This document shows positions 1 through 22,634 of a stretch of DNA of 64,000 nucleotides, in pieces. Under the pieces are notes generated by a model. The model saw nothing but the letters and a program-made list of their open reading frames with translations, made no database searches and had not been told where the DNA came from. Position numbers and translations under genes: made by a program. Numbering within the stretch: position 1 is the first letter of the stretch; the number at the start of each line of letters is the position of its first letter. This DNA comes from an uncultured Candidatus Micrarchaeota archaeon. GTDB lineage: Archaea > Micrarchaeota > Micrarchaeia > Micrarchaeales > Micrarchaeaceae. Location of the stretch: contig CAVUGN010000011.1 of assembly GCA_963741095.1 (NCBI GenBank), forward strand, positions 35,541-99,540. Direction: 5' to 3'.

Positions 1-1
1 A

Positions 2-652
2 AGTCAACGCAGATTGGAGGGGCAGCTCACCATCAAGGAGTACAATATACTAAGGGAATTGAACAGAAATGGTGTCGCAAAGTTCTCAGAAATGGACAAG
101 AAACACGGGCTGGGCGGGGAAGAAACCGCATACATCTACGAAAAGCTTATTGAGAGAGGTATACTCAAGAGGATGACAGTAAGTCTTCAGAAAATACCTT
201 TGCAATATAACGCAGTAATCATAATGGGTGTGGTTGACAACAATGGCTTCAGGCGGACTAGAGACAGGCTGCTGATGGATGTAATAGAGGAGAACGGTAC
301 GCCTATCAACAAGTATTCTGTAATGGGAAACATAGGAAACCCTGATGGCGTCATGTTTATAATGCCGATAACTCCGAACAACAGGCTCGATGTATTCGAA
401 AGTGAGTTCAAGGAGAGGATAAAAGGTGTGGCACTTAGAACTCTCATAGTCACTGACGTGCTCGTTGGTTCATTATGTTACAGGAAGTTTGACAACGCAA
501 AGTCTAGGCAATACCGGGCACTGCGGATGGAGGGCAATACAGAGCTATCATTAGCCGATGTAGACTACGATGAAACAGTTAGAAGGAAGCAAGTTATCAA
601 GAAAGGTGAGGATACAATAGAAGAACTACTCGCCAATAATGAAAATATATAA
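2..652 (+). CDS. Tandem-Lrp/AsnC regulator, copy 1 (C-terminal half, truncated by window edge)
   Basis: Open frame from window start; shares EYxxLRELNxxG..F.E.D.K and GSLCYRxFDNA motifs with the five full copies. Confidence 0.85.
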   Translation, partial: SQRRLEGQLTIKEYNILRELNRNGVAKFSEMDKKHGLGGEETAYIYEKLIERGILKRMTVSLQKIPLQYNAVIIMGVVDNNGFRRTRDRLLMDVIEENGTPINKYSVMGNIGNPDGVMFIMPITPNNRLDVFESEFKERIKGVALRTLIVTDVLVGSLCYRKFDNAKSRQYRALRMEGNTELSLADVDYDETVRRKQVIKKGEDTIEELLANNENI

Positions 653-708
653 TGCAGGAATAGAATGCAATAACTACTGATGTATCTTACAGAAATTAGC
701 TAATTAAA

Positions 709-729
709 CTACCCTCCTGGTCCTTCCAT
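709..729 (-). CDS. Gly-rich micropeptide 1, MEGPGG
   Basis: ATG GAA GGA CCA GGA GGG TAG just after CAGGTGA SD-like motif and conserved promoter block; same layout in six cassettes. Confidence 0.65.
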   Translation of the reverse strand: MEGPGG

Positions 730-926
730 ATCTTCACCTGTCCAAACATCTCTGAAAAGGCTTAAATAGCTTGTGTCCGTTTGAAATGGGCCAGCGCGAA
801 TGCTCGTATAAACAACATCGAACCACGTCGGGCGATGTTGTATAATTGTCTTCATCACGGTGCATAGATAAGTATTTATACTTATTCTACATAATATACT
901 TAATGTGATGAAGATGACAAACATGA
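727..926. repeat. ~200 bp direct repeat, near-identical to 5979-6178
   Basis: Direct comparison; contains inverted repeat ACAACATCG-N12-CGATGTTGT at 812-841. Confidence 0.9.
730..776 (-). promoter_or_regulatory. Conserved micropeptide promoter/SD block 1
   Basis: Minus strand ACACAAGCTATTTAAGCCTTTTCAGAGATGTTTGGACAGGTGA; TTTAAG TATA-like box 32-37 nt before ATG; present six times. Confidence 0.7.
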
Positions 927-1135
927 CACTGGCCCTGCCGGAAGCGCTCACTGAGATAATGAAACGGCACAAGGACATAAAATGGAGCGAGGTGGCCCGC
1001 GAGGCCATCTGGGACAAGGCGAGGAAGCTGGAGCTCATGGACAAGATCCTCTCCAAGAGCGAATTGACCGAAAAGGACGCGTTGGCGATAGGCGCGAAGA
1101 TAAACGAAGCCGTAGCTAAGAGGCATGGGTTATAA
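905..1135 (+). CDS. Putative antitoxin (RHH/CopG-like, VapB type)
   Basis: 76 aa, TNMTLALPE...IKWSEVAREAI ribbon-helix-helix pattern; directly upstream of a PIN gene. Confidence 0.7.
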   Translation: MMKMTNMTLALPEALTEIMKRHKDIKWSEVAREAIWDKARKLELMDKILSKSELTEKDALAIGAKINEAVAKRHGL

Positions 1136-1544
1136 CGTGATCCTGGTCGTGGACGCCAATGTGGTGATTGCCGCATTGGTAAAGAATGGCAAAGTGCGTG
1201 AGATCCTGCTTAGCGACAAGTTCAAGTTCGTCGCACCTGATTTCGTGAAAGAGGAGACTCTGAAATACCTCGATCTAATAAAACAAAAGTCGGGACTTGC
1301 GAAAGACGACCTGGACCTGCTCATAACCCTACTGTTCCAAGAGATAGAAACCATACCCAGAAGCGAGTATCAATCGCAACTTCCCAAAGCCGAAAGGATG
1401 ATAAAAAATGATGTAAAGGATGCACCATACGTTGCATGCTACCTGGCGCTGAAATGCGACGGGATCTGGACGAACGACTCGGACTATGATGGAAAACCAG
1501 AACTGAAAGTGTTCAAAACAGAATACCTTCTGAAATTATTGTAA
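1125..1544 (+). CDS. PIN-domain toxin (VapC-like); start may be GTG at 1137
   Basis: LVVDANVVIAAL, DVKDAPY, IWTNDSD acidic PIN motifs. Confidence 0.85.
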   Translation: MGYNVILVVDANVVIAALVKNGKVREILLSDKFKFVAPDFVKEETLKYLDLIKQKSGLAKDDLDLLITLLFQEIETIPRSEYQSQLPKAERMIKNDVKDAPYVACYLALKCDGIWTNDSDYDGKPELKVFKTEYLLKLL

Positions 1545-1565
1545 TCCACAACCTTTAGACTTGGG

Positions 1566-1639
1566 CATCGTCGAACCATGTTGAACCACGTCGAACGACG
1601 TCGTTTCCCAATTGCACTTTTACGACGAAGAACCGGCTC
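1566..1639. repeat. TCGA-rich intergenic repeat copy
   Basis: catcgtcgaacca...gtcgtttcccaattgcacttttacgacgaagaaccggctc, shared with 2437, 3014, 11211, 16847, 22688. Confidence 0.8.
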
Positions 1640-1650
1640 GCGTCGTGCTA

Positions 1651-1971
1651 CTAGATCTCCAAACCCTCTTTGAGAGCGGCACTGACCAAAGTGATACCTT
1701 TTGCCTCCCTCTCGAACTCATTTTTGGTGTAGCTTAAGAAATCCACGGGATAGTCTATCCCCTGCGATACGTGCCATTCCAAAAGGAGCTTGCTGATCAG
1801 CTTCTTTACGGGTTTCCTGATCACAACCAGAAGGTCCACATCGCTGTCCTTCTTTGCCTCGCCTCTTGCCGAAGAACCGAAGAGTATGATCCGCTCTATT
1901 CCGTACGGCTTGGCGACGCTCTCCTTGAAGCCTTTTATCGTTTTTATCAATTGAGGATTGACCTTACCCAT
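1651..1971 (-). CDS. Minimal nucleotidyltransferase (MNT) antitoxin
   Basis: LFGSSARGE..DSDVDLLVV motif, 106 aa, overlaps HEPN gene. Confidence 0.9.
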   Translation of the reverse strand: MGKVNPQLIKTIKGFKESVAKPYGIERIILFGSSARGEAKKDSDVDLLVVIRKPVKKLISKLLLEWHVSQGIDYPVDFLSYTKNEFEREAKGITLVSAALKEGLEI

Positions 1972-2306
1972 TCCAAAACACCTTCACACTTTTCAATCAC
2001 GTCCTTTGCTTCATCTTCCGAAACGGACCTTGTTACTGGATAGCGCGTATCCACGTAATACTCGGTAAGATCGGCACAATAATTAACTATCTCTGCAGTT
2101 GCCTTAATGCTTTGGGCGAGCTTCACGAGGTCATGCGTCCTGTCAAATCGGCTCAACTTCTCTATCTGTGCAGCTTTCAACGCCTTCTCCGCTACCTGCT
2201 GGGCATAAAAGGATGCGTCCTTGAGCCTCTCGCTTTCATAGAGAAGCTTTGCAGTCACGAGATTGTCCTCGGCTTCTTTTATCCACACTCGTGCATCATC
2301 TTTCAT
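1947..2306 (-). CDS. HEPN-domain protein (HEPN-MNT pair)
   Basis: WIKEAEDNL..A, FYAQQVAEKALKA, RTHDL, TRYP motifs; start set at MKDD. Confidence 0.9.
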   Translation of the reverse strand: MKDDARVWIKEAEDNLVTAKLLYESERLKDASFYAQQVAEKALKAAQIEKLSRFDRTHDLVKLAQSIKATAEIVNYCADLTEYYVDTRYPVTRSVSEDEAKDVIEKCEGVLEWVRSILN

Positions 2307-2436
2307 GTCCTCATAAGAATTTGCCTTAAAAACCTTAATAATGTTTGCAGTTGGGCCACATTCATCCAAAATATTTGAATATGTGTTTTTTTTAAGTGAG
2401 TCTTATTCCTTCGTAATGACTCCTAACTCGAAACAC

Positions 2437-2481
2437 AAACATCGTCGAACCACTTCGAACACCGTCGTTTCCCAATTGCAC
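2437..2481. repeat. TCGA-rich repeat, truncated copy
   Basis: aaacatcgtcgaaccacttcgaacaccgtcgtttcccaattgcac. Confidence 0.75.
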
Positions 2482-2531
2482 CGCCAAAGTACCACACCAT
2501 AAGAAATATAAAGCAGAAATGCACAATATTA

Positions 2532-2780
2532 GTGATAAAGATGGAAATGGAAGTGTACGGATTCAAAGCCAAGATAACCAAGGAAGGTAAGTATCTCATA
2601 GGCGAGATACCGGAGCTGCATGTAGCTGATCAGGCCAAGACCCTGAAGGAACTCGAGAGCGAACTCAAGGATGCGGTAAGCCTAGTTGTAAATCTTATCC
2701 TGGACAATCCAAAAGATGCAGCCAAGAACTTCGGTAACGGTGTCATAAGAAAGCTGAGCGTTCAGGTAATCCGCGCATAG
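2532..2780 (+). CDS. hicB: HicB-like antitoxin
   Basis: YLIGEIPELHVADQAKTLKEL...LKDAV matches HicB N-terminal fold; upstream of HicA-like gene. Confidence 0.75.
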   Translation: MIKMEMEVYGFKAKITKEGKYLIGEIPELHVADQAKTLKELESELKDAVSLVVNLILDNPKDAAKNFGNGVIRKLSVQVIRA

Positions 2781-2788
2781 GTGTATCC

Positions 2789-3010
2789 ATGTCGCGGTTA
2801 CGCCCGCTGAAAAGTCCTCTCCTCATAAAGGTGCTGCAGAAATACTACGGCTACAACGCACGCTCTGGAAGCGGCAGGCATATAGTTTTGCAGGACTCGG
2901 ATGGTCATACGACTGTGATCCAGCTTAACATGGAACTCGGCAAAGGCATCCTGAAGAAGATACTAAATCAAACTGATTTGAAGTGGAAAGAAATAGAGAA
3001 GTACCTCTAA
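2789..3010 (+). CDS. hicA: HicA-like toxin
   Basis: 73 aa; GSGRHIVL..TTVI..ELGKGILKKILNQ HicA pattern. Confidence 0.8.
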   Translation: MSRLRPLKSPLLIKVLQKYYGYNARSGSGRHIVLQDSDGHTTVIQLNMELGKGILKKILNQTDLKWKEIEKYL

Positions 3011-3013
3011 ATG

Positions 3014-3200
3014 ACATCGTCGAACCACGTCGACCAACGATGTTTCTCAATCACACTTTTACGTCGAAGGACCGGCTCCCCACCAGGAAAATTATCGACG
3101 ACAAAATTCGTCTTTTCGATGGATGTTGGAGATGTGGACTGTATTCAACAAAACTACATGTAAATCTGGTATAGTTCCAGGTATAGTCTTGAGTATAGCC
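3014..3200. repeat. TCGA-rich repeat, long copy
   Basis: Aligns with 11250-11430 and 16847-16976, including atcgacgacaaaattcg.cttttcga. Confidence 0.85.
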
Positions 3201-3204
3201 TATA

Positions 3205-3465
3205 TTATTTCCTATACTCATAATGGCTCACGGCCTTGCCGTACCTGCTACTTATGTTCTTTGAGATGTAATCAGCGACATCTAACGGCTCCTTGCCGTC
3301 CGTGAACCTGGCCTTGACCACGAATCCGCAGTCGCCTTCGGTCAGTAGGACCTCCTTGACGGACTCGAACATCATCAGCTTCTCTGCGATCCCGCCGGCG
3401 TCTGCGTTCTCTTTTGGCCTTACGAAATAGAGCCCGTACATCGCGCCTATTCTCTTTTTACCCAT
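3205..3465 (-). CDS. Stand-alone Lrp/AsnC ligand-binding (RAM) domain protein
   Basis: IAEKLMMFESVKEVLLTEGDCGFVVKARF fits the RAM pattern; no HTH. Confidence 0.65.
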   Translation of the reverse strand: MGKKRIGAMYGLYFVRPKENADAGGIAEKLMMFESVKEVLLTEGDCGFVVKARFTDGKEPLDVADYISKNISSRYGKAVSHYEYRK

Positions 3466-3480
3466 GTCAATCCACCATAA

Positions 3481-3624
3481 TCATAATCGGTCTATATCAA
3501 GCAACTTGACGAACACGCTGTGGCATCTGTCACACTCCTCGATCACGAACCTGCCGTTCACCACACGCTTGCATACCAGCCTTCCTGTTCTGCACCTACT
3601 GCATGCAACTCCCTCGCTGTTCAT
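3481..3624 (-). CDS. 47-aa zinc-ribbon protein (below ORF-track cutoff)
   Basis: MNSEGVACSRCRTGRLVCKRVVNGRFVIEECDRCHSVFVKLLDIDRL; two CxxC motifs; ATG overlaps upstream stop (ATGA). Confidence 0.7.
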   Translation of the reverse strand: MNSEGVACSRCRTGRLVCKRVVNGRFVIEECDRCHSVFVKLLDIDRL

Positions 3625-3890
3625 CCCTCGATCACCGTTCCGTAGTCGCCGTCCAGTCCTTTCGATATGTACGCGGTAGCGTCCTTGGGTTCAGCACCGA
3701 CGAAAAACTTCACCTTCGCCAGGAACACGCCCTTGTTTTCCATCAGGTTGACTGCCTTCACGCGCTTCAGTGCAAGCAGCCTGTCTGCAAGGCGCTCGCT
3801 GACACGGCTCTTTGGATTCCCGAAGTAGAACCGGTGCCAAACAGCATGGCTCGCGCTGACACTTGTTACTTTTCCACCCGTATTACACAC
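3621..3890 (-). CDS. Small protein, possibly degenerate RAM domain
   Basis: LADRLLALKRVKAVNLMENKGVFLAKVKF aligns with 3205-3465 and with the 8824/14550/20200 family. Confidence 0.55.
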   Translation of the reverse strand: MCNTGGKVTSVSASHAVWHRFYFGNPKSRVSERLADRLLALKRVKAVNLMENKGVFLAKVKFFVGAEPKDATAYISKGLDGDYGTVIEG

Positions 3891-3936
3891 CCACTTCTCT
3901 TGCTTTCTTTACCTCATTCTGACAAACATGAAGACA

Positions 3937-4134
3937 TCATCTGGATGCGGAAACAGCCCGCATTCCTAACTCGCCAAGCAGCATCACCGGCCTGCCGGTC
4001 CTTTCCAACTCGCAGGCGTTTATGTGCCACAGATATGCAACTGGATTCTCATGCTCCATTCCGCACATCCAGCACTGGTACATATTATCGTGCCCTCCAA
4101 AGAAGATATCCTTTATCCTTGTTCCCATGCCCAT
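3937..4134 (-). CDS. Small C2HC zinc-finger protein
   Basis: YQCWMCGMEHENPVAYLWHINAC; near-identical copies at 6184 and 14885. Confidence 0.75.
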   Translation of the reverse strand: MGMGTRIKDIFFGGHDNMYQCWMCGMEHENPVAYLWHINACELERTGRPVMLLGELGMRAVSASR

Positions 4135-4152
4135 TCTACCATCCTATCAATC

Positions 4153-4263
4153 ATAAGGGTAGGGGGTTGCACCGCGGAAGCATGGTGATAATGTGGAGGA
4201 CGAGCTTGCGCTAATCCATAGAAAATTCTTACTTCCACCCCTGTACAACCTACACACCCGTAT
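4153..4263 (-). ncRNA. Predicted rod-like leader RNA hairpin, copy A
   Basis: Nested pairings GGGTG/TACCC, GGTTGTAC/GTGCAACC, GTGGAAGTA/TGCTTCCGC, apical AGC-GCAA-GCT; AT-rich TATA-like box ~20-25 nt upstream. Confidence 0.65.
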
Positions 4264-4431
4264 AGTATCGCGTCATATCCGGTATTTATTAGATACAGAA
4301 GACAGGGCGGTAGTATTGATAAAGCGAAAACATTAAAACATATAAATTTATCATTAAGCGCTCAATCTTCAATTGTTATACATTAAGGATTTAACAAAAG
4401 GAATAAATATCCTCTTATTTGATATAACTAC

Positions 4432-5928
4432 ATGCAAGACGTTCCACCACAGATATCTGCTGCTTTCGAGAAAGTGAAGAAGACGTACCCGTTCTATGTC
4501 TCGCTGAAGAGGATATACGGAAAATATTACGTATACAAAGTGAAGGTCGTCTGGGACCGACTAACCAAAAAGACAAAAACAAATTCTGAGTACTTGGGCC
4601 GGATAACCAGCGATGGGAAATATAAAAAGAAGAGCATCACACCGAATGATTACCTGAGAAAGGCCGAGGCACTCATCGCTTCCAAAGGTGGGAAGATAAC
4701 GTGGGACGGAATTGAGAAAGTCCGGGGTGCAAACGAGCAGATTAAAGAGGAACAGATCGAGGAAACTGTTGCCGACGAATTGGAAACGAAGATACTGACT
4801 ATATTGAGTATGAACGGCCGCGCGTCGATACCTTTCATAAGCAAGATGGTTGGTCTTAGCAATGCTACAACAGATTATCACGTAAAGAAGATCGAAGAGA
4901 AATACGGCATCAGATATTTTCCAGAGATAGACGTAGACAAATTAGGTTATGCCAGCTTTATGATATCCATAAAATTTGAAGATGAGGTTCCGAGTGCAGA
5001 AGAGATTAAAAGAGAGCTTAGCAAATTTCCTGGAGTACAACTTGCAATGGTAACTCATGGTAGATATGACCTAATAATTCATTTTGTAACCGGGACCGAA
5101 TATATGCCAAATAGTTATGGATGGGCATCTCAGAATGAAATATATGACCTCCAAAATAATGCTTTTAGAGCAAACAAGGCAAAATGGTACGTGTCAACGT
5201 TTTACAGAACATATGGATGCGTACCGTTGAGAAACGAATTTTTTGATATGATGAAGAAAATAGTGTGGGAAAAAAGCAAAGAGAGCAGGAGACCTAAGCC
5301 AAATCAACTTCTTCCTAGGGAGTATTTCGTACTAAAAGAACTAAACTTAGATGGTAGGTGCGAATTCACAGAAATAGACAATAGATGCAATTTTGATAGG
5401 GGTAGATCAGATTACACCTATAAAAGATTAGTTGAAAATAAAACAATAAAACGCATCACGTTGACAATGCAGAAACCTCCGGTAAAGTATGTGGCAATAA
5501 TCTATATGGATTTTATAAAAAGAGATGAGTTTTCAAAGAGCAGAGTGAATCTTTTATTAGACATAATAGAGCGGCGAACACAAATAAACAAATACGCACT
5601 TGTTGGCGATGCGAGCATTCCATATGGTGGATTCTTCATACTGCCGATAACTCAAGATGGGCTACTAGAAAAAGTCACCGAGCAATTAAAGAGCATAAGC
5701 GGCACAAACGTATACGCTCTTGTTGCAAGCGAGATAGTCTTAGGTAGCCTTTGTTATAGATTATTTGATAACGCATACTCAAGCCAGCAACGCATGTTGG
5801 CTGATGAGTACAAGAAGCATCCAGTTGAAAAAGCGAATTATTTGGGCGTAGCAAAAACCAAAAAGAGTAGTATAAAATTAGATATAAGGGGATTGCCTAC
5901 TGACAAATCAACAGATGACGTTACATAA
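4432..5928 (+). CDS. Tandem-Lrp/AsnC regulator, copy 2
   Basis: N-terminal YYVY..WD..K..YLGRI domain; AsnC HTH (KILTILSMNGRASIPFISKMVGLS), RAM, second HTH-RAM. Confidence 0.85.
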   Translation: MQDVPPQISAAFEKVKKTYPFYVSLKRIYGKYYVYKVKVVWDRLTKKTKTNSEYLGRITSDGKYKKKSITPNDYLRKAEALIASKGGKITWDGIEKVRGANEQIKEEQIEETVADELETKILTILSMNGRASIPFISKMVGLSNATTDYHVKKIEEKYGIRYFPEIDVDKLGYASFMISIKFEDEVPSAEEIKRELSKFPGVQLAMVTHGRYDLIIHFVTGTEYMPNSYGWASQNEIYDLQNNAFRANKAKWYVSTFYRTYGCVPLRNEFFDMMKKIVWEKSKESRRPKPNQLLPREYFVLKELNLDGRCEFTEIDNRCNFDRGRSDYTYKRLVENKTIKRITLTMQKPPVKYVAIIYMDFIKRDEFSKSRVNLLLDIIERRTQINKYALVGDASIPYGGFFILPITQDGLLEKVTEQLKSISGTNVYALVASEIVLGSLCYRLFDNAYSSQQRMLADEYKKHPVEKANYLGVAKTKKSSIKLDIRGLPTDKSTDDVT

Positions 5929-5948
5929 GCAGAATGCACTTTAGCTTT

Positions 5949-5981
5949 TTATCCGTTACCTCCTGTTCCTCCTCCTTCCAT
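5949..5981 (-). CDS. Gly-rich micropeptide 2, MEGGGTGGNG
   Basis: ATG...TAA in frame behind conserved promoter and CAGGTGA. Confidence 0.65.
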   Translation of the reverse strand: MEGGGTGGNG

Positions 5982-6178
5982 ATTTTCACCTGTCCAAATA
6001 TCTCTGAAAAGGCTTAAATAGCTTGTGTCCGTTTGAAATGGGCCAGCGCGAATGCTCGTATAAACAACATCGAACCACGTCGGGCGATGTTGTATAATTG
6101 TCTTCATCACGGTGCATAGATAAGTATTTATACTTATTCTACATAATATACTTAATGTGATGAAGATGACAAACATGA
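5979..6178. repeat. Copy of 727-926, including micropeptide promoter block 2 (5982-6028) and the first codons of the antitoxin
   Basis: Near-identical; ends in 12-bp TGACAAACATGA. Confidence 0.9.
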
Positions 6179-6183
6179 AGACA

Positions 6184-6381
6184 TCATCTGGATGCGGAAA
6201 CAGCCCGCATTCCTAACTCGCCAAGCAGCATCACCGGCCTGCCGGTCCTTTCCAACTCGCAGGCGTTTATGTGCCACAGATATGCAACTGGATTCTCATG
6301 CTCCATTCCGCACATCCAGCACCGGTACGCATCGCCGCGCTCTCCCAAGAAAATATCTCTTATCCTTGTCCCTATGCCCAT
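6184..6381 (-). CDS. Small C2HC zinc-finger protein, copy 2
   Basis: YRCWMCGMEHENPVAYLWHINAC. Confidence 0.75.
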   Translation of the reverse strand: MGIGTRIRDIFLGERGDAYRCWMCGMEHENPVAYLWHINACELERTGRPVMLLGELGMRAVSASR

Positions 6382-6398
6382 TCTACCACTCTATCAAT

Positions 6399-6509
6399 CA
6401 TGAGGGTAGAGGATTGTACTGTGGAAGTGTGGTGAGACTCTGGACAGAGCCTGCGCTGAATCTAGAAAAATGCTTACTTCCACCCACATACATATCCTTC
6501 CCACCCATG
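6399..6509 (-). ncRNA. Predicted leader RNA hairpin, copy B
   Basis: GGGTGG/CTACCC, AGGAT/ATCCT, TGTAT/GTACA, GTGGAAGT/ACTTCCAC, AGC-GCAG-GCT; TTTATAAA upstream. Confidence 0.65.
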
Positions 6510-6702
6510 GTAGATGCTATGAAGAAGCTTTTATAAATAGGCTCTCAGAATTTTTAATTATATATATCAATACAGGTATGAAATTCCAATAAATCTCATA
6601 CTATTTAACCATATTAACCATATATAATAGATGGCAGATTAGTATAATGGTTAAATAGATAAATTAGAAAGTTATATATATTACCCATTATAAGGCATAT
6701 GT

Positions 6703-8082: not shown

Positions 8083-8098
8083 GAATGTATTATACGCT

Positions 8099-14540: not shown

Positions 14541-14549
14541 CAGATAAGC

Positions 14550-14828: not shown

Positions 14829-14884
14829 TTGTTTACACCCACTTTTCCTGCTTTCTTTACCTCATTCTGTCAAACATGAAGATA

Positions 14885-15082: not shown

Positions 15083-15096
15083 TCTACCACTTATCA

Positions 15097-15213
15097 ATCA
15101 TAAGGGTAGGGGGTTGCACCGCGGAAGCATGGTGATAATGTGGAGGACGAGCTTGCGCTGATCCGTAGAAAATTCTTACTTCCACCCCTGTACAACCTAC
15201 ACACCCATATGAT
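15097..15213 (-). ncRNA. Predicted leader RNA hairpin, copy D
   Basis: Near-identical to copy A, with closing stem ATCATA/TATGAT; TTATATA upstream. Confidence 0.65.
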
Positions 15214-15378
15214 ATTATGAAGTCCAAAGTATATATAAGTAAACGAGCTCCTGCATTACACGATACTGCACTTCATAGAATTCTACACCGATTTACTCGC
15301 ATTTATCAATCAATATAACCCTTTATATTAACCTTATAATAGTAAAGCTTAAATATCATATAACCTTATAATATCATT

Positions 15379-16704
15379 ATGGATATGCCTGAAGCGGTGC
15401 GAAAGACTTTTGCAAGGCTAAAATTAGAGTATCCTTTTTACATTCTGCTTTCGATAATAAACAACAGGTTTTATGTTTATCATTCATCTTCTATTTGGGA
15501 CAAAGAAAAAAGAAAAGTGCGCAGTAACAAAGAATACCTAGGCCGCATAACCGAAGATGGTAAGTTCATAAAAAAGAGCGTTAAGGAAGGCATTGCACCG
15601 CAGATTAATACCCTAACCTCCATAAACAGCCTAGACAAGGTCGACGAAAAAATACTGACGCACCTAAGCATGAATTGCAGACTGCCGATATCAACGATAG
15701 CAGAACGGGTGGGATTAAGCGTACAGGCTACGGAGCGCAGAAAAGAGAATTTAGAGCGGAGATACGGAATTAGATACTTCACAAGCATAAACTACTTCAA
15801 GCTCGGTTACTCCACATACCTCGCATTTGTCTCTTTTAAGGACAAAAAGCCGGACATGGCTGTGCTGAAATCAGTATTAGAGAAATCACCACGAATACAG
15901 TTGGCCATGGCGGCGCAGGGTGCATACGACCTAGTTCTCTACATCCTGGCCGAGAATAGTGCAATTCTAAACGAAGTCATATTCGATATTCGGAAAGATG
16001 AACGAATTGGAGATTACGAATCTATCTGGAATGTTGTAGTATTCGATCAAGCATATGGGTGCGTGCCACTGCGAGACCTGTTCTTCGACCTTCTCGAGAA
16101 GAAGGTGTGGCATAGAACCAAAACAATACCTAAGCCGGCAAGCGATAGCCTGACATATAGAGAGTATGTACTACTTAGAGAATTGAATTCCGAAGGCAAC
16201 AAGCCTTTTGCTGAGATAGAAAAGATGCATGACATGGGTCACGGCGCTGCAAAGTACACGTTTGACAAGATCAAGGCTAAGGAATTAATATGGAGGCCAA
16301 CAATGACAATGGGCAATTATGGCGTAAAATACAATGCAATGATCTTCATCAGCATACTAAACAAGGCTGCATTTATCCGTGACCGGGAAAAGTTTCTTCG
16401 TTATATAATCAAGGACTACGATGCACCGTCGAACAGGTTCTCTCTCGAAGGCGATACTCTATCCCCAGATGGAGAAGTATTCCTAATGCCTGTTCTGCGG
16501 GACGGAGAACTGGAAATGGAATCTGGATGGCTAAGCGAACAGATAAACGGAATCAAACTAGAATCGCTGATCATCACAAAAATACTTCTAGGTGAGCTGT
16601 GTTATAGAAAATTAGATAACGCACATGCCCAGCAAACAAACATACTCGTAAGTGAATATAAAATGGAACCCCCTAAGGAAACCATAGATTATATCCTAGA
16701 ATAG
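15379..16704 (+). CDS. Tandem-Lrp/AsnC regulator, copy 5
   Basis: Same architecture and motifs. Confidence 0.85.
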   Translation: MDMPEAVRKTFARLKLEYPFYILLSIINNRFYVYHSSSIWDKEKRKVRSNKEYLGRITEDGKFIKKSVKEGIAPQINTLTSINSLDKVDEKILTHLSMNCRLPISTIAERVGLSVQATERRKENLERRYGIRYFTSINYFKLGYSTYLAFVSFKDKKPDMAVLKSVLEKSPRIQLAMAAQGAYDLVLYILAENSAILNEVIFDIRKDERIGDYESIWNVVVFDQAYGCVPLRDLFFDLLEKKVWHRTKTIPKPASDSLTYREYVLLRELNSEGNKPFAEIEKMHDMGHGAAKYTFDKIKAKELIWRPTMTMGNYGVKYNAMIFISILNKAAFIRDREKFLRYIIKDYDAPSNRFSLEGDTLSPDGEVFLMPVLRDGELEMESGWLSEQINGIKLESLIITKILLGELCYRKLDNAHAQQTNILVSEYKMEPPKETIDYILE

Positions 16705-16725
16705 ACTCAAGAATATAAAAACTGC

Positions 16726-16767
16726 TTAACCTCCGCCCCCTCCGCCTCCGCTTCCTCCTCCGTCCAT
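16726..16767 (-). CDS. Gly-rich micropeptide 5, MDGGGSGGGGGGG
   Basis: 13 codons plus TAA; Gly codons GGA, GGC, GGG and GGT are all used. Confidence 0.65.
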   Translation of the reverse strand: MDGGGSGGGGGGG

Positions 16768-16813
16768 AATATCACTGTTTAAACATCTCTAGAAAAGCTT
16801 AAATGGATTGTGT
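16768..16813 (-). promoter_or_regulatory. Micropeptide promoter/SD block 5 (most diverged)
   Basis: ACACAATCCATTTAAGCTTTTCTAGAGATGTTTAAACAGTGA. Confidence 0.65.
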
Positions 16814-16846
16814 CTGTTTGAACTTGGCTAGCGCACATGTTTGTGC

Positions 16847-16976
16847 AAACATCGTCGAACCACGTCGACCAACGTTGTTTCTCAATCACACTTTTACGAT
16901 GATTGACCGGCTCCCCAGAGAAAAATTTATCGACGACAAAATCCGCCTTTTCGACGAATGTTTGAGATTTGAACTC
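16847..16976. repeat. TCGA-rich repeat, long copy
   Basis: Aligns with 3014-3140. Confidence 0.85.
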
Positions 16977-17019
16977 AGAGTAGTAATCCTACACATCTTT
17001 GGGCGTGAACCCAAGGCAA

Positions 17020-17895
17020 TTACTTGTTTGTATTTACGAATTCCCAAAAGCTTCCTCCATTTGCCGATGTGTACCTTTTCATTGCCGGCAGCAGCATTTC
17101 TGCGTAGCTCTTCAGGTACGGCCTTGCTGCAACCATCCTTTCGCATGTTCTATCTACAGATATGGGTTCGCTCAATCCTAACTGTCCGGTCAATATACCC
17201 TCTGGGGCAAGATAGCTTACCAGGGCTTCTTCATACAGGTTGTGATCATGAGTGCCGATCAGCCCGGACTTGCGGGGCAGAAGTAAGTGCAGGAGCTCAT
17301 GCAGCGCAACGCACAGCAACTCCCTGCCCAGCCTCTCTGGATCTTTATGCGCAACATGGGACAGATAGCATCCAATCACTGCCGGATCTGCATTCAAGGC
17401 ATGCCCTCCAACCACCATATCGTTATCAAAGCCTTTTTTCTCCGCCAATATCAGCGTGATCTGTTCTGGCAGTTTCGCCTCCAACATCCTGCTAAAATTA
17501 TCGCGGATTTCACTTTCTTTCGAGTGGAAAATATCTGATGCAATCTTGCCTATCCCAGCCAAGACGCCACTGCTTTCTGCAGTGTCATTGCAGTATACGT
17601 TCGGCTGCAGCTTTGGCATGTCAATAGCATCTAACAGTATCCGAGTTGTCTTGTCAATAGACGGAAACCTTTTGAATGCTACCTGTTCATTTTTGCTATT
17701 GTATAACAGATTTGCAGCTTCTATTACATTCCGATAAGCATCGTAGAAGTCCAGGATTGATGAATAGCCCTTTACCACAGTCTGCAGATTGCCAGGAGTG
17801 AAGAATATGTCATATACTCCAAGTATCTTTTGAGCATTGGAGTTTGTGGTGATCGTTAATTTCACATATTCACCTTTGCTGCGCGACATTGACAC
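17020..17895 (-). CDS. HExxH protein, putative zinc metallopeptidase
   Basis: VALHELLH then EEALVSY about 20 aa later (gluzincin-like); last gene of the radical SAM operon. Confidence 0.55.
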   Translation of the reverse strand: MSMSRSKGEYVKLTITTNSNAQKILGVYDIFFTPGNLQTVVKGYSSILDFYDAYRNVIEAANLLYNSKNEQVAFKRFPSIDKTTRILLDAIDMPKLQPNVYCNDTAESSGVLAGIGKIASDIFHSKESEIRDNFSRMLEAKLPEQITLILAEKKGFDNDMVVGGHALNADPAVIGCYLSHVAHKDPERLGRELLCVALHELLHLLLPRKSGLIGTHDHNLYEEALVSYLAPEGILTGQLGLSEPISVDRTCERMVAARPYLKSYAEMLLPAMKRYTSANGGSFWEFVNTNK

Positions 17896-18839
17896 TGTTC
17901 TACTTCAATATCAAGTGACTTGAATCTTTCTATTGACCTTTTCCAAATAGTACTCCATGGCTCATTGTAGGCATTTCCTAAAACTACTTCCCTTAAATTA
18001 AGACACGGAGTGACATCTCCATTGACAAGCACGCCTGCTTGGATAACTCCGGCTGTGCAGGTCTTGAAATGGTATGAGTCAAGCAATGTCTCTTCCACTC
18101 TATCCGTGCATCTCTCTATCACTTCTACCACTTTAACGTTTTCTCTATCTAGTTGAGATCTCATATCCTCAACTCTGAGCATCAGATCATACATTTCATG
18201 CCTATCAACCACCAAGTCTTGGTATTTGTTGGGATCCACTGCAGGTTGCAGAGGCTCCAAGTTCAGCAGCTTCATCTGACTATATTTCTTCATCAAGACC
18301 TCCGTACTATTGAGCACATCATCCTGGTTTGCCTTAGTTATGACTATCCCGACTGTAAAGGGTATTTCATTTCTCTCAAGTATGTCAAGACCATCCAGAG
18401 TCTCAGCAGTCTTTCCTCGCGTCCTATCGTTTATTTCCGATCTTACACTATCTAAAGAGACTTGGATTGCGGCATCATTTCCTACGGCATTCTTTAATCT
18501 CATTAACTCTTCTTTTGTAAGCCTATTTATCAGCGTGCCATTGGTACTCACTTCCACTACAGTCTTGAACGTGTTCTTTGCGAGTTCAAACACATCAACT
18601 ATATCTCTTCTACTAAAGGGTTCTCCACCGATCAACAGTATCTCGAAGGGATTTGCCTCTTCCTTTGTTTTCTCAAAGAGATTTTTGAGTCTTTCGAGGG
18701 GTGGAGTGATATGAGTGAATGGCTGAGCATAACAGTAGGTGCAATTAAGATTGCACCCACTTACCACTTCAAACTCCACCCTGAAAGGCAAACTTGGCAA
18801 TATCTTCTGAGCCATCATGCACTCGCCTTGCTTCTGCAT
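17862..18839 (-). CDS. Radical SAM/SPASM-twitch maturase 2
   Basis: CNLNCTYC, GGEP, CTAG...NGDVTPC...LGNAYNEPWSTIW. Confidence 0.9.
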   Translation of the reverse strand: MQKQGECMMAQKILPSLPFRVEFEVVSGCNLNCTYCYAQPFTHITPPLERLKNLFEKTKEEANPFEILLIGGEPFSRRDIVDVFELAKNTFKTVVEVSTNGTLINRLTKEELMRLKNAVGNDAAIQVSLDSVRSEINDRTRGKTAETLDGLDILERNEIPFTVGIVITKANQDDVLNSTEVLMKKYSQMKLLNLEPLQPAVDPNKYQDLVVDRHEMYDLMLRVEDMRSQLDRENVKVVEVIERCTDRVEETLLDSYHFKTCTAGVIQAGVLVNGDVTPCLNLREVVLGNAYNEPWSTIWKRSIERFKSLDIEVEQCQCRAAKVNM

Positions 18840-19774
18840 TGCATTCCCTTTGGAAGAGTTTCGTATCTTTCAAGAGATCTTACCCATATATCATGCCACG
18901 ACTCCTTAAACACGTTTCCGATGTTTGCGTCTCTCATCAGTGCGCATGGGGATACATTTCCATTTGGGAACACTGTTGCTCTGAACACTCCAGCCAAACA
19001 CGTATCCATTTTGTATGTGTCGAGTACAGCAGGATCATTGCAGGCGCACTTGTCACCAGTTCCTGTGATTCGAACTGAACTACCCATGCGTGCTGCAGTA
19101 CCGCGAACTTGTACAATCAGAGCTGCCATCTCTTTTGCTCCGATGTCCAAGCTCTCATGATATCTCTCTTTATTTGAGAGGTTTGGCATCATTCGGTTCA
19201 AGTTAATCCCATGCAGGTGCTTGAACTCTGACATGAAGGCGACTTCGGTATCCATTATATCGTTGATATTCTCCTTGCTTACTACCGTTCCGATTGAGAA
19301 TGGAATTTGATGGTCATCCATCTTTTGCATCCCTCTGAAAACGGTGTCAGTCTTTCCTCTCAGCATATTGTTCAAAGAAGGCTTTGCGCTGTCTGCAGAT
19401 ATTTGGATAAAGGCATCATCTCCTGCTATTTTCTTTAGTCGTGCAAAGTCAGCTTCAGTCATTATGTCGAAGGCCGTTCCATTTGTGACTACTCCTACTC
19501 TCCTCCCAAAAAGGTTCCTCGACTCTTCAATCACGTCTAGTACGTCTTTGCGTGTGAATGGCTCGCCTCCGCAAAGGATTACCTCGAAGGGGTCTACTTC
19601 TTGCTTCGTCTTCTGAAGCATATATATCACGTCAACCAGAGGAGGCTCGTAATGTGAAAGGGGCTGGGCATAGCAATTTGGACATGCTAGATTGCACATT
19701 CCAGTCACCTCAATCTCTACTCTGAATGGAACTTGTGGCAGAATCATGTTTTTATTCTCCATATCAAACCCCAT
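18815..19774 (-). CDS. Radical SAM/SPASM-twitch maturase 1
   Basis: CNLACPNC, GGEP, CLAG...NGNVSPC...IGNVFKESWHDIW. Confidence 0.9.
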   Translation of the reverse strand: MGFDMENKNMILPQVPFRVEIEVTGMCNLACPNCYAQPLSHYEPPLVDVIYMLQKTKQEVDPFEVILCGGEPFTRKDVLDVIEESRNLFGRRVGVVTNGTAFDIMTEADFARLKKIAGDDAFIQISADSAKPSLNNMLRGKTDTVFRGMQKMDDHQIPFSIGTVVSKENINDIMDTEVAFMSEFKHLHGINLNRMMPNLSNKERYHESLDIGAKEMAALIVQVRGTAARMGSSVRITGTGDKCACNDPAVLDTYKMDTCLAGVFRATVFPNGNVSPCALMRDANIGNVFKESWHDIWVRSLERYETLPKGMQCRSKASA

Positions 19775-19785
19775 TTGGGTGGCAG

Positions 19786-20190
19786 TTAGACTGCCACCGT
19801 TTCCAGAAGATTCGGGTATTCTGCCCTAACATCTTCTACGTTCCTATCCAGTATGCTTTTCAGCAGACCGATAGTCTTTGCTGGAGCTGTGAAGATAGTG
19901 CTATCTTTCAGATTCATGATGAATCCGAAGAGTCCATCTTCTCTTACCTTGATACACTCAGACACCTTCATATCTGTTCCCCTTAGGAGTCCGGGTGTCA
20001 AAGGATTTATGCTGGAATTCATCCAATTGGAATGGCTCATCCAATTGCCATGACCATAGCCTCCAGCGTATGGCTTTTCTGCCCATTCTTGCTTTGCTCC
20101 AACTCTTGAGTACAGCTGTATGCCATACTCATTCTGCACTCTCGTGGCAGACTCCGCTTTTGATGCTTGTTTATCCATCTTTTCACCCAA
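19786..20190 (-). CDS. Putative RiPP precursor fused to a PqqD/RRE-like domain
   Basis: GHGNWMSHSNWMN repeat followed by KVSECIKVREDGLFGFIMNLKDSTIF (RRE-like beta strands); directly upstream of two SPASM enzymes. Confidence 0.5.
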   Translation of the reverse strand: MGEKMDKQASKAESATRVQNEYGIQLYSRVGAKQEWAEKPYAGGYGHGNWMSHSNWMNSSINPLTPGLLRGTDMKVSECIKVREDGLFGFIMNLKDSTIFTAPAKTIGLLKSILDRNVEDVRAEYPNLLETVAV

Positions 20191-20199
20191 TAGATAAGC

Positions 20200-20466
20200 T
20201 CAACTCTCGACCATCGATACGAATGCCCTGCTGATGCCGCGCGACGCGCGGTCCTTCTCGTTCTTCAGTTCGCTGTCGTCCCTGTAGAACCTGACCTCTG
20301 CCACGCAGTCGCCGTTGCTGTCGTAGAGAGGGATGCGCTGCCTGCGCCATATGTCCATCAGCCTCTCCGCGAGGTCGCCTTTCCCGCCCTTCAGCTGCAG
20401 GAATACGGTCCTGCACAACCCTTTCTTGCCTTTTCCGCTCGCTTGCGCTAGCTTGTTAGTTGTCAA
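20200..20466 (-). CDS. Conserved cassette small protein (RAM-like family)
   Basis: Near-identical to 8824-9114. Confidence 0.7.
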   Translation of the reverse strand: MTTNKLAQASGKGKKGLCRTVFLQLKGGKGDLAERLMDIWRRQRIPLYDSNGDCVAEVRFYRDDSELKNEKDRASRGISRAFVSMVES

Positions 20467-20508
20467 TTTCCCACCCAGTTTACTTTACACCCGCTTAACG
20501 TAATCTGA

Positions 20509-20685
20509 TTAACTCCTTGGATTCGCGTCTATCATGACGCTCATGCTCCCGGCTGACAGCTCCATCATATCGGATATGTAACCACCCACTTCGCTCTCCT
20601 TGCAATACGCCTTACCCTCCACACTGTTTGTGTGTACCCTCACGAGAACGTTCTTATCTAGCAATTTTCCTATTATGTTGTTCAT
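20509..20685 (-). CDS. Conserved 58-aa cassette protein
   Basis: Homologue of 9129-9317; GGTGA SD-like motif before ATG. Confidence 0.7.
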   Translation of the reverse strand: MNNIIGKLLDKNVLVRVHTNSVEGKAYCKESEVGGYISDMMELSAGSMSVMIDANPRS

Positions 20686-20710
20686 CTCACCACACCAATC
20701 ATAAATATAA

Positions 20711-20845
20711 TGGTGGGAGATTAGAGAGAAAGGCAGATATCGGACGTGGTAGAACTGAGGCCCGTTTGGGAAGAATTGTTGAAACAACGTGCATGCAAGA
20801 AGCCTGCACCCTCGTATTCAGAACCGACACTGTTATCACCCACCA
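20711..20845 (-). ncRNA. Predicted leader hairpin, divergent copy E
   Basis: Different sequence, same position; TGGTGGG/CCCACCA, TGTCGG/CCGATA, GAGG/CCTC; TATATATA upstream. Confidence 0.45.
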
Positions 20846-21030
20846 AGTCAATAATATGAATTTTGGACTATATATAGATGGCTTAGGGAGAAAGACATTC
20901 GCCATGCTCAAAGCGTTAATTAATACACCAATTTTTCGGTATAAGTTGCCAAAGTTAGTGTTACTGATAGGTATTCTTAACCATGCTACTAAGCGAAATC
21001 CTTAAATAGTATATATGTTGCAATTTACTT

Positions 21031-22485
21031 ATGCCTGATGTGCCGGCCAGCGTTGCGAGGGCGTACGAGAGCATAAAGGGAGAGTATCCGTACTTCGTAA
21101 GCCTGAAGAAGATCCACGGCAAATACTTTTATTTGTACAAGCAGAGCGTGCGGTGGGACAAGGAAGAGAAAAAACGGAAGACAGTTTCGAAGTACTTGGG
21201 CAAGATAACTCCTGATGGGCGTTTCATAAAGAAGATGCCTGGTCTGAGCAAGGATCTCGGTAGGGCAATGGCGGTAATAGAGTCTTATGGCGGCACCGTG
21301 GTCCTTCCCGAGAAAAGGGAAAGCGAACTGCAGGCTACGGCTTTAGAACAAGGCATCAGCGAAATCGACGACAGGTTGCTGACGGTACTTAGCATGAACG
21401 CAAGAGCAGACCTGTCGTACTTCGGGAAACAGATGGGCCTGACTGCATCGGCTACCTATTCAAGAGTAAGGCACCTCGAGCAGAAGTACGGGATAGGGTA
21501 CGTCCCCGAGATAGACATCAGGAAGCTTGGCTACCTTACTTACATGATATTCGTGAAGTTCGCGGAACAGCCGCCCAGCGCAGACTTGACGAAAGAAGCA
21601 CTGAAAAAAGAACCTATAATTCAGCTTGCCCTCCTGACACAAGGCAGGTATGACATAGTTATGTATGCCACGGTCGAGAATAGCGACGAGGCAAGGACAC
21701 AGATCTACGAGCTACAGGCGCGGGTGTTCCCGACTTATGAAGCGGAGTGGCATGTGGTGCCCTTCTACCCCACCTACGGCTTCGTGCCCCTGAGGCAGGA
21801 ATTCTTCGACCTGCTCGCGCAATCGGTATGGAAAAGGACGAAAGAGCAGCCGAGAAAGCGCAAGGGCCAGCTGACTCAGAAAGAGTACATTGTGCTCAGG
21901 GAGCTTAACGCCGATGGCGCAGCGAAGTTCTCCGAGATAGACAGAAAGCATGGGTTCGTCGGGGAGGGCGCGGCTTATACGTACCGCAAACTTATCGATA
22001 CGGGGTTACTGAAAAGGGTAACCATGACGATGCGGAGATTGCCCATGCAATACACGGCGATGTTACTTGCAGATATAACAAACAGGGCAAAGTACGCCAC
22101 GAGCAGGGAGAAGCTGCTGAAGGGGATAATCGAGAAAACTGCCACGCCAACCGATAGGTACGCCCTTGTCGGGGACAGGTGGACGCCTTTCGGCGTAGTA
22201 TTTGTGGTGCCGATATTCGGGGAAGTAGACCTAGAGAAAGCTGAGGGAGTAATAAAGAGCAGAATAGACGGCATCCAATTGGACAGGCTGATCGTGCTGG
22301 GCACATCAATAGGTTCAATGTGCTTTAGACGATTCGATAACAATTATTCCAACCAGCACAGGCTTCTGGTCGAGGAGTATAAGATGAAGGACTCGCTGAG
22401 AATGGATTACACGCTGACTGGAAAGGGGGGCATGTCTAGGATTTTAGGCGAAAACGAAGATAATCTTGCAGAAGAAGATAGCTAA
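21031..22485 (+). CDS. Tandem-Lrp/AsnC regulator, copy 6
   Basis: Same architecture; YGFVPLRQEFF, GSMCFRRFDN. Confidence 0.85.
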   Translation: MPDVPASVARAYESIKGEYPYFVSLKKIHGKYFYLYKQSVRWDKEEKKRKTVSKYLGKITPDGRFIKKMPGLSKDLGRAMAVIESYGGTVVLPEKRESELQATALEQGISEIDDRLLTVLSMNARADLSYFGKQMGLTASATYSRVRHLEQKYGIGYVPEIDIRKLGYLTYMIFVKFAEQPPSADLTKEALKKEPIIQLALLTQGRYDIVMYATVENSDEARTQIYELQARVFPTYEAEWHVVPFYPTYGFVPLRQEFFDLLAQSVWKRTKEQPRKRKGQLTQKEYIVLRELNADGAAKFSEIDRKHGFVGEGAAYTYRKLIDTGLLKRVTMTMRRLPMQYTAMLLADITNRAKYATSREKLLKGIIEKTATPTDRYALVGDRWTPFGVVFVVPIFGEVDLEKAEGVIKSRIDGIQLDRLIVLGTSIGSMCFRRFDNNYSNQHRLLVEEYKMKDSLRMDYTLTGKGGMSRILGENEDNLAEEDS

Positions 22486-22564
22486 ACACCATGAAAAATA
22501 CTGTGCAGAACATATATGATTACTACCATGAATGCGCTTTTCAGTCGCCATTAATCATAACGCT

Positions 22565-22588
22565 CTAACCGCTAGCTCCGCCATCCAT
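22565..22588 (-). CDS. Gly-rich micropeptide 6, MDGGASG
   Basis: ATG GAT GGC GGA GCT AGC GGT TAG. Confidence 0.65.
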   Translation of the reverse strand: MDGGASG

Positions 22589-22634
22589 AATCTCACTGTC
22601 CAAACCTCTCTGAAAAGGCTTAAATAGCTTGTGT
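22589..22634 (-). promoter_or_regulatory. Micropeptide promoter/SD block 6
   Basis: ACACAAGCTATTTAAGCCTTTTCAGAGAGGTTTGGACAGTGA. Confidence 0.7.

Follow-up and report, generated by a model that had tools for sequence, protein, structure and literature searches.

Lrp/RAM proteins are the commonest regulators of archaea, and ligand-controlled oligomerization is the usual mechanism of the Lrp/AsnC family. To our knowledge, no Lrp/AsnC member is paired with a genetically encoded peptide, and none was found in the literature. These feast/famine regulators are described as including stand-alone RAM "demi" proteins (PMC2995911). In Firmicutes, the LCP/SIP-RopB system is described as a 24-bp open reading frame (ORF) that gives rise to a mature hydrophobic peptide of 8 amino acids (aa) and lies beside the gene for an Rgg-type receptor (PMC10518010). 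Here we describe a 64,000-nucleotide (nt) stretch of DNA from an uncultured Candidatus Micrarchaeota archaeon (assembly GCA_963741095.1, contig CAVUGN010000011.1, forward-strand positions 35,541-99,540), hereafter the window, in which six genes for a predicted double-Lrp regulator are each followed by a convergent, Gly-rich micro-ORF. The pairing suggests a peptide-regulator system that has not been described before; no published description was found in the literature on the system or on archaeal peptide signaling, supplementary files aside.

Pairing of Regulator Genes With Convergent Micro-ORFs

An earlier inspection of the letters without database searches (the sequence-only reading) had listed six minus-strand micro-ORFs downstream of tandem-Lrp regulators and proposed that each peptide is the cognate ligand of its own regulator. 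Conceptual translation of the window reproduced all six coordinates and translations. The regulators are six plus-strand genes of 441-498 aa, the first one truncated by the window edge, and the gaps measured from their stop codons (56, 20, 16, 77, 21, and 79 nt) agree with the proposed spacing of about 15-80 nt. The cassette features are as follows, in window coordinates.

2-652, plus strand: regulator paralogue 0, C-terminal 216 aa in the window; the complete gene (473 aa) begins upstream at G000:C11:34771 (G000 being this genome)
709-729, minus strand: micro-ORF 0, MEGPGG
730-776, minus strand: promoter/5′ untranslated region (5′ UTR) block 0, with B recognition element (BRE)/TATA box TTTAAG, CAGAGA element and Shine-Dalgarno (SD) sequence AGGTGA
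4432-5928, plus strand: regulator paralogue 1, 498 aa
5949-5981, minus strand: micro-ORF 1, MEGGGTGGNG
5982-6028, minus strand: promoter/5′ UTR block 1
6703-8082, plus strand: regulator paralogue 2, 459 aa
8099-8122, minus strand: micro-ORF 2, MGDGGGA; its orthologue at locus L015 of a relative is MGGTGGGA
8123-8169, minus strand: promoter/5′ UTR block 2
9615-11027, plus strand: regulator paralogue 3, 470 aa
11105-11134, minus strand: micro-ORF 3, MDGGGPGGG
11135-11180, minus strand: promoter/5′ UTR block 3
15379-16704, plus strand: regulator paralogue 4, 441 aa, the copy whose structure was modeled
16726-16767, minus strand: micro-ORF 4, MDGGGSGGGGGGG
16768-16813, minus strand: promoter/5′ UTR block 4, the most diverged of the window copies
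21031-22485, plus strand: regulator paralogue 5, 484 aa
22565-22588, minus strand: micro-ORF 5, MDGGASG
22589-22634, minus strand: promoter/5′ UTR block 5

The genome that holds the window (1.08 Mb, 94% complete, with an archaeal 16S gene) encodes 12 full-length regulator paralogues, and just beyond the stop codon of all 12 lies at least one convergent micro-ORF. Genome-wide there are 12,701 ATG-initiated micro-ORFs of 4-22 codons; only 24 are Gly-rich, and 17 of these 24 sit just 3′ of a regulator paralogue. Several loci carry more than one, such as MGDGGSSG together with MGDGGWTG, three micro-ORFs at C5:60317-60476, and five or six at G000:C5:99300-99732. The last is a tandem array of the unit SD-ATG-peptide-stop, an arrangement that recurs in relatives with seven units at L037 and four at L118. 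This genome of about 1 Mb holds more than 20 micro-genes of 5-13 codons, and the family accounts for about 1% of its genes. Genes of 5-13 codons escape annotation pipelines, and those predicted here would be among the smallest independent genes known.

Distribution was assessed in 201 genomes of the phylum with a homologue cut-off of E ≤ 1e-30. The regulator family was confined to two families of one order, being found in 45 of 55 genomes of one (a tally that counts the unpublished genome G054, from which no loci were drawn) and in 23 of 36 of the other, and in 0 of 109 genomes from 23 other families. The homologues carry the record name "Lrp/AsnC family transcriptional regulator" from Candidatus Micrarchaeaceae or Micrarchaeia archaea. 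Scans of genome-contig and metagenome-contig collections with the regulator returned generic bacterial Lrp genes only and no close orthologues. In this sample the gene pair is specific to one order of small-genome archaea, probably within the Micrarchaeia (DPANN).

The downstream flanks of these homologues bear out the expectation that the micro-ORF and its promoter elements would recur on the opposite strand. In 300-400 nt past the stop codon of 62 homologues from more than 30 genomes, a Gly-rich micro-ORF (two or more Gly residues, making up 30% or more of the peptide) was present on the convergent strand at 26 of 62 loci and on the regulator strand at none of the 62. Under a stricter rule (TATA box 24-50 nt upstream, SD of the GGTG/GTGA type, ATG, and a length of 4-25 codons), loci of other genomes scored 26/60 on the convergent strand and 0/60 on the regulator strand, and 200 shuffles averaged 0.3 per 60 and never exceeded 3. 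For 15 fresh loci under an SD-only rule, the figures were 9/15 and 0/15, one locus having just 60 nt of flank. Where a Gly-rich ORF is lacking, the locus often carries some other SD-led mini-ORF (MTGPDWTN, MKGPNGT, MDGTR, MKGEH, MDSHRAAP). Peptides of five codons with a terminal Tyr are a recurring form: MNGSY (in two genomes), MNGGY, MDGAY, MSDCY, and MVGGY. In comparisons of four DNA-contig runs with window positions 1-20000, no micro-ORF difference was seen among the matches listed.

Promoter Block, Shine-Dalgarno Sequence and Geometry

The block of 46-47 nt reported upstream of each micro-ORF is indeed present, and in an alignment its stretch from ACACAA to ATGG is near-invariant. A 32-nt pattern allowing up to three mismatches matched five of the six window blocks versus 0 expected in 100 shuffles, and the sixth was recovered using a degenerate pattern. 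The layout is TATA box, AGGTGA, 4 nt, ATG; the 3-nt spacing given previously between CAG(G)TGA and the ATG was wrong. With a looser pattern, 15 matches were found genome-wide, each directly 5′ of such a micro-ORF and none elsewhere. A block-governed regulon outside the micro-ORFs was ruled out, all 15 block copies sitting at micro-ORFs.

The 3′ end of this organism's own 16S rRNA, ...GATCACCTT, complements AGGTGA and is without the usual CCUCC. In this organism AGGTGA is thus the matching SD, while GGAGG does not resemble one. An AGGTGA-type motif stands ahead of the first ATG in just 74 of the 422 long ORFs of the genome. GGAGG as an internal SD or ribosome sponge was ruled out, there being no CCUCC at the 16S 3′ end. 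The 16S gene itself (G000:C1:98605-100598, L057) measures 1994 nt versus 1478 positions of the model and probably bears an insertion.

Counted by eye on the sequences, TATA box and ATG are about 30-35 nt apart, both here and in several genera, a geometry that fits a predicted start of the micro-ORF transcript about 10 nt 5′ of the ATG. About 6 nt past the TATA box lies a YCAGAGA element that is common to several genera. The blocks are alike across paralogues of one genome and unlike between genomes, as seen in G000 with 15 copies, G006 with 3 and G011 with 3. Since near-identical blocks stand beside regulators whose helix-turn-helix (HTH) helices differ, control of all blocks by a single shared factor is more likely than control of each block by the adjacent regulator.

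The spacer between the proximal micro-ORF and the regulator stop codon has a median of 29 nt (range 5-127, 38 loci), and it contains a run of five or more T on the micro-ORF strand at 10/38 loci and on the regulator strand at 3/38. Given so short a spacer and so few oligo-T runs, the two transcription units probably overlap.

A second, partly conserved element resembling CGTGGTTCGATGTTGTT, which in some copies forms part of an inverted repeat, accompanies five of the six window copies, 60-90 nt 5′ of the micro-ORF TATA box:

About 780-840, 6030-6090, 11200-11260, 16830-16890 and 22640-22700, minus strand: CGTGGTTCGATGTTGTT-like element

Coding Signals in the Micro-ORFs

The composition of the micro-ORFs has the three-base pattern of translated sequence, G making up 62, 52, and 10% at codon positions 1, 2, and 3. 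Of 43 micro-ORFs, 41 have an in-frame stop codon no more than 5 nt past the last Gly codon, versus 1/30 and 1/34 in the other frames, a contrast that is partly a consequence of ORF selection. Every stop codon and every Gly codon is represented, as had been stated, while the use of Gly codons is far from even (51 of 81 are GGA, compared with 21% of the Gly codons in the genome's 422 long ORFs). Also as stated, the sequence after the stop is unrelated between copies, no conservation being seen there in the alignment. The further point that lengths vary only in whole codons has no weight, because it is true by definition for any ATG-to-stop ORF.

Order-wide, the predicted peptides consist of 43% Gly, followed by Asp, Ser, Glu, Pro, Ala, Thr, and Asn, and compared with the regulators they contain 4-6 times less Leu, Ile, Val, and Lys. 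Trp is limited to one regulator clade (MSEGGWS, MAANWGG, MGDGGWTG). The regulators of window copy 2 and of L015 are sisters on the tree with 100% support, and their micro-ORFs have 21 of 24 bases in common plus one 3-nt indel (MGDGGGA vs. MGGTGGGA). The promoters of this pair diverged between TATA box and SD while the micro-ORFs stayed alike. These patterns point to translation of the micro-ORFs. The claim that selection acts on the peptide holds to the extent that the sequence pattern fits a translated product; the bias toward GGA and toward A at the third codon position shows a constraint on RNA or decoding as well. A check for co-variation of regulator and peptide gave a signal at the second residue (9 changes on the tree; 1000 shuffles averaged 12.6, and 19 of them gave 9 or fewer) that is weak and confounded by linkage.

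The Double-Lrp Regulator

The tandem-Lrp identity assigned to the regulator was borne out by its predicted structure and by a fold match to NirDL. In Pfam, PF13404 and/or PF13412 (HTH_AsnC/HTH_24) match near residue 100 in all five full-length window paralogues, while RAM is matched weakly in one. NCBIfam models for LysM, AsnC, and LrpA match residues 83-211, and the PDB sequence matches are all Lrp/FFRP proteins over residues 84-210 (e.g., 1ri7, E 5.6e-8, residues 84-201). No TPR or Rgg match was found in Pfam, NCBIfam, or the PDB. An AlphaFold2 model of paralogue 4 (pLDDT 90.6, 28-row alignment) has a helix and four strands in residues 1-65, a disordered linker, and two HTH+RAM units at residues 87-227 and 260-404. 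With this model, Foldseek returned the fused double-Lrp protein NirDL (4ch7) as the best PDB fold match (E 1.7e-11, 344 columns, 15% identity), ahead of many single Lrp proteins, among more than 30 Lrp structures with TM-scores by target of 0.63-0.79. The N-terminal domain modeled alone (pLDDT 89.4) gave no PDB fold match (best E 0.098) and no Pfam match. The regulator is thus modeled as a transcription factor of about 450 aa that combines an alpha+beta N-terminal domain of about 65 aa, without a fold match, with two fused Lrp/AsnC units, and both the RAM effector domain and the AsnC-type winged HTH of the Lrp/AsnC family are found in it. The paralogues are mutually 31-43% identical. Domain-specific divergence of the paralogues was ruled out, identity being flat at 0.33-0.43 over the HTH and RAM domains, recognition helices included.

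Neighboring Genes

The divergent cargo operon that had been proposed for each regulator exists in so far as there are divergent upstream genes; these are heterogeneous, being a Zn-finger micro-protein, stand-alone RAM proteins, an ORF of about 90 aa, or radical-SAM operons. Since neighbors differ between paralogues, the regulator is the invariant partner of the micro-ORF. Small proteins encoded near the regulators are the following.

3205-3465, minus strand: stand-alone RAM protein, 86 aa, divergent from regulator 1 (PF01037 weak, E 0.038)
3621-3890, minus strand: RAM-like small protein, 89 aa, with BLASTP similarity to the RAM-like family and without a Pfam match of its own
3937-4134, minus strand: C2H2-like Zn-finger micro-protein, 65 aa, divergent from regulator 1
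6184-6381, minus strand: Zn-finger micro-protein, 65 aa, divergent from regulator 2
14885-15082, minus strand: Zn-finger micro-protein, 65 aa, divergent from regulator 4
G000:C11:34268-34465: fourth copy of the 65-aa Zn-finger micro-protein, divergent from a regulator paralogue
L028:1211-1393, L036:1231-1425, L040:1336-1503, L032:524-694, 871-1041 and 1218-1397: convergent proteins of 55-64 aa with conserved CP and DD[YF] motifs

Of 40 loci, 15 have stand-alone RAM-domain proteins (80-110 aa) encoded upstream of, and divergent from, the regulator gene, and homologues at L012:3285-3566, L033:665-994, and L017:823-1143 match PF01037 with E 1e-5 to 1.7e-6; it is possible that they serve as hetero-oligomer partners of the regulator. 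The four Zn-finger copies are 79-100% identical at the amino acid level and have the motif CWMCG...H...H/C, with one homologue in a relative (L025). About 400 nt upstream, encoding this micro-protein, are 76-93% identical among four window cassettes, and on their promoter side copies 0 and 1 share another 212 nt (98% identical); the divergent regulator-plus-peptide cores therefore sit between conserved flanks. For the convergent proteins of 55-64 aa, no Pfam family, no fold, and no confident model were obtained, and the protein atlas scores for the L028 protein were all under 0.9.

A family of ORFs of about 90 aa occurs in the window at 8824-9114, 14550-14828, and 20200-20466 (minus strand) and also on C5 and C10, near six regulator loci; it had no Pfam or PADLOC match. 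In two cases this ORF leads a radical-SAM operon, where it could be a precursor or recognition protein. One such operon, at 11463-14540 (minus strand), contains a radical-SAM gene and an S9 prolyl-oligopeptidase-family gene, and another, at 17862-19774 (minus strand), contains two radical-SAM/SPASM genes. Both resemble peptide-modification clusters, with no specific NCBIfam model above cut-off. A PIN_2-domain gene (1125-1544, plus strand) and a HEPN-domain gene (1947-2369, minus strand) are also among the neighbors. PADLOC returned nothing for the regulator and seven neighbors, with only generic viperin-core similarity for two radical-SAM proteins, and neither Rfam at the gathering threshold nor a tRNA scan gave a match in the window. 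A contig from a soil run connects position 1563 to 3013, omitting the 1449 nt of 1564-3012, and this stretch is therefore variable in the population. The cassette region (1-23000) has 40-50% G+C versus 50-55% in 24000-64000, which is consistent with a variable or acquired island.

A Proposed Mechanism and Its Alternatives

The pairing, its conservation, the promoter and SD geometry, and the coding-type pattern are matters of direct observation, and the mechanism set out here is a reading of them. We give a rough probability of 0.4 to an arrangement in which the peptide acts as an intracellular effector of the double-Lrp protein, combined with convergent interference. The micro-genes (about 5-20 codons, each with its own TATA box, AGGTGA SD, and ATG) would yield small, flexible, acidic or polar, Gly-rich peptides that would act within the cell on the neighboring regulator. 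There, the peptide would bind an enlarged ligand site in the fused double-RAM body and alter the oligomeric state or DNA binding of the regulator; the best fold match is a double-Lrp protein with a large ligand, so the double-Lrp architecture can hold a ligand much bigger than an amino acid. Near-identical blocks would subject every micro-gene in a genome to the same control, and the convergent units, mostly without a terminator, would interfere such that regulator and peptide levels are reciprocally coupled. The suggestion in the sequence-only reading that the peptide may act inside the cell agrees with a search for the Opp-type binding protein PF00496, which gave no match in the 94%-complete genome, whereas the control matched 11 of 14 reference genomes; the search covered no other type of transporter. 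The ThiF/E1-like family PF00899 (MccB type) gave only a sub-threshold match of 17.8 bits elsewhere in the genome. Together, the lack of an Opp-type protein and of a ThiF-like enzyme above cut-off argues against re-import loops and microcin-C-like chemistry.

A narrower proposal, in which every double-Lrp protein has a private effector encoded by its own micro-ORF, with up to twelve orthogonal peptide-receptor channels in a 1-Mb symbiont, is possible but doubtful. If it is true, RAM-domain regulators would have their first class of peptide effectors, a ribosomal peptide code for signaling or specificity would have been seen in Archaea for the first time, and the conserved flanks would let strains swap cassettes. 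The family, whichever way it works, is probably central to the self-regulation of these host-dependent symbiont cells. Co-cultures of a Micrarchaeon exist (PMC8975820).

Several observations weigh against a peptide effector, private or shared. About 40-55% of the relatives' loci are without a micro-ORF under the rules used, and four loci carry an ORF of 55-64 aa in the place of the micro-ORF, L032 having three tandem copies. Identical blocks and divergent HTH helices are at odds with one private operator per regulator, the weak clade signal in peptide class would be expected from linkage alone, and the strictly convergent 3′-end position, for which a diffusible ligand has no need, hints at a role in cis. 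Codon usage points the same way. GGA accounts for 51/81 Gly codons in the micro-ORFs of this genome versus 22% in the regulators, and for 89 of 133 inner Gly codons in the micro-ORFs of relatives versus 29% in theirs; GAA outnumbers GAG 22 to 5, Pro is encoded by CCA in 14 of 25 cases, and hardly any NCC codons occur. In the first 12 codons of 81 SD-led genes, GGA reaches only 30%. From the GGA and third-position-A bias it follows that selection acts on RNA or decoding too and not on the peptide alone; the constraint is perhaps one of keeping a G-rich message unpaired, or of the choice of decoding tRNA. Two other causes of the GGA bias were ruled out, namely a 5′-end codon effect as its whole cause (30 vs. 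63% observed) and a missing tRNA-Gly, both Gly tRNAs (GCC, UCC) being present.

These points lend themselves to a device in cis, in which transcription from the dedicated promoter sends a short RNA into the regulator 3′ end, micro-ORF translation, perhaps sensitive to the supply of Gly-tRNA(UCC), merely sets the stability or reach of that RNA, and the peptide is a by-product. We regard this as rather unlikely. The ever convergent and close placement, with its median gap of 29 nt and its oligo-T runs at 10/38 (micro-ORF strand) and 3/38 loci (regulator strand), would be accounted for, as would the strong GGA and third-position-A bias and the single promoter type of all copies, and ORF arrays could keep a long RNA covered by ribosomes. 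In this genome, moreover, GGA rules the inner Gly codons while the last one is mostly GGC or GGT (10 of 13, with GGA in 1 of 13, by hand count), a pattern not seen in relatives. A by-product, however, would not be expected to hold an order-wide composition with 43% Gly and a depletion of hydrophobic and basic residues, nor to show residues particular to a clade (Trp, the ...GGGA end), orthologues that differ by an in-frame indel, and recurring Tyr-ending 5-mers, and the presence of both Gly tRNAs also speaks against such a device. If the pair is cis-acting, it would constitute a new translation-coupled convergent switch in archaea.

It is improbable that the peptide has another fate, whether as a substrate or precursor for modification by the radical-SAM/SPASM and S9 peptidase products encoded nearby or as an exported signal between cells or between symbiont and host. 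Three radical-SAM genes (two with SPASM) and a prolyl-oligopeptidase-family gene do lie between the cassettes, and arrays of similar, non-identical peptides resemble multi-core precursors. However, the radical-SAM operons stand beside just two of the six window regulators, the remaining paralogues having different neighbors; the peptides are without a leader or signal sequence, and the searches for PF00496 and ThiF-like enzymes described above go against export with re-import and against microcin-C-like chemistry. Most improbable is a non-coding purine-rich element (a two-tier G-quadruplex, a polypurine tract, or a protein-binding site) under selection, with an incidental ATG-to-stop frame. 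Such an element would explain the GGA excess and the four or more GG runs read by eye in every window copy; it would not explain the strict three-base periodicity, the stop right after the last Gly codon in one frame only, or the SD matching the anti-SD at a fixed distance from the ATG of each ORF in the arrays. Many members, moreover, are not G-rich (MDGTR, MSDCY, MKGEH, MTGPDWTN, MNGSY), and the window is without an Rfam match.

Comparison With Known Systems

A leader peptide is encoded by a tiny ORF that is translated and in which one amino acid abounds. No structural gene lies 3′ of the micro-ORF on its own strand, where only the antisense of the regulator 3′ end is found, so attenuation could act only on the regulator antisense. 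In prgQ/prgX, a peptide gene and a regulator gene face each other and their RNAs overlap; prgQ is a processed propeptide, and the prgX receptor fold differs from that of the double-Lrp regulator. No MccB (ThiF/E1-like) enzyme is encoded adjacent to the micro-ORFs as in microcin-C-like systems, and the maturase genes of a radical-SAM ribosomally synthesized and post-translationally modified peptide (RiPP) system lie beside only two of the six window cassettes.

With the NirDL/AhbAB siroheme decarboxylases (4ch7, 4czd), the regulator has in common a fused or heterodimeric double Lrp-fold body. Those proteins are enzymes of heme d1/heme b synthesis with one or two copies per genome, whereas this genome has 12 divergent paralogues with recognizable HTH_AsnC motifs and only 15% identity to NirDL, and a catalytic role is not indicated. 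The neighbors are micro-ORFs and RAM, Zn-finger, PIN/HEPN, and radical-SAM genes, so that a heme-pathway context was not seen; heme-pathway genes themselves were not searched for. Like Lrp/AsnC proteins in general, the regulators have the HTH_AsnC and RAM folds and stand-alone RAM partners encoded nearby; unlike them, they have two units fused in one chain and an extra N-terminal domain without a PDB fold match, and the proposed ligand is an encoded peptide whereas the known ones are free amino acids.

In RRNPP/arbitrium systems, too, a regulator is accompanied by an adjacent short peptide gene, and many paralogous pairs per genome are possible. Such a gene was found beside the regulator, as in RRNPP and LCP systems, at 12/12 loci here and at 26/60 and 9/15 loci in relatives. 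RRNPP/arbitrium peptides are described as long propeptides with an export signal, cut to 5-8 aa and re-imported by Opp (PMC10518010). Here, in contrast, there is no propeptide, no Opp-type binding protein was found in the genome, and the receptor fold is double Lrp/AsnC rather than TPR.

The LCP/RopB class is the nearest known system. An LCP gene is an ultrasmall ORF that yields the mature peptide without leader or processing, has its own promoter, stands beside a gene for a cytoplasmic transcription factor, and varies in sequence between systems (PMC10518010), and the predicted micro-genes share these traits. The differences, as far as the same account (PMC10518010) describes the LCPs, are in receptor, peptide, host, and layout: Rgg/RRNPP-type versus Lrp/RAM; highly hydrophobic peptides of 8-10 aa versus predicted Gly-rich, acidic ones of 5-20 aa; Firmicutes, the only phylum named for LCPs there, versus archaea; and a peptide gene reported divergent from the receptor gene versus one that is always convergent at the receptor 3′ end. 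LCP function is described as proven (PMC10518010), whereas that of the micro-ORF pairing is a proposal. If the peptides act on the adjacent regulators, Lrp/RAM proteins, until now sensors of free amino acids, would acquire a new ligand class, and a leaderless peptide-receptor logic described to date only from Firmicutes would extend to Archaea.

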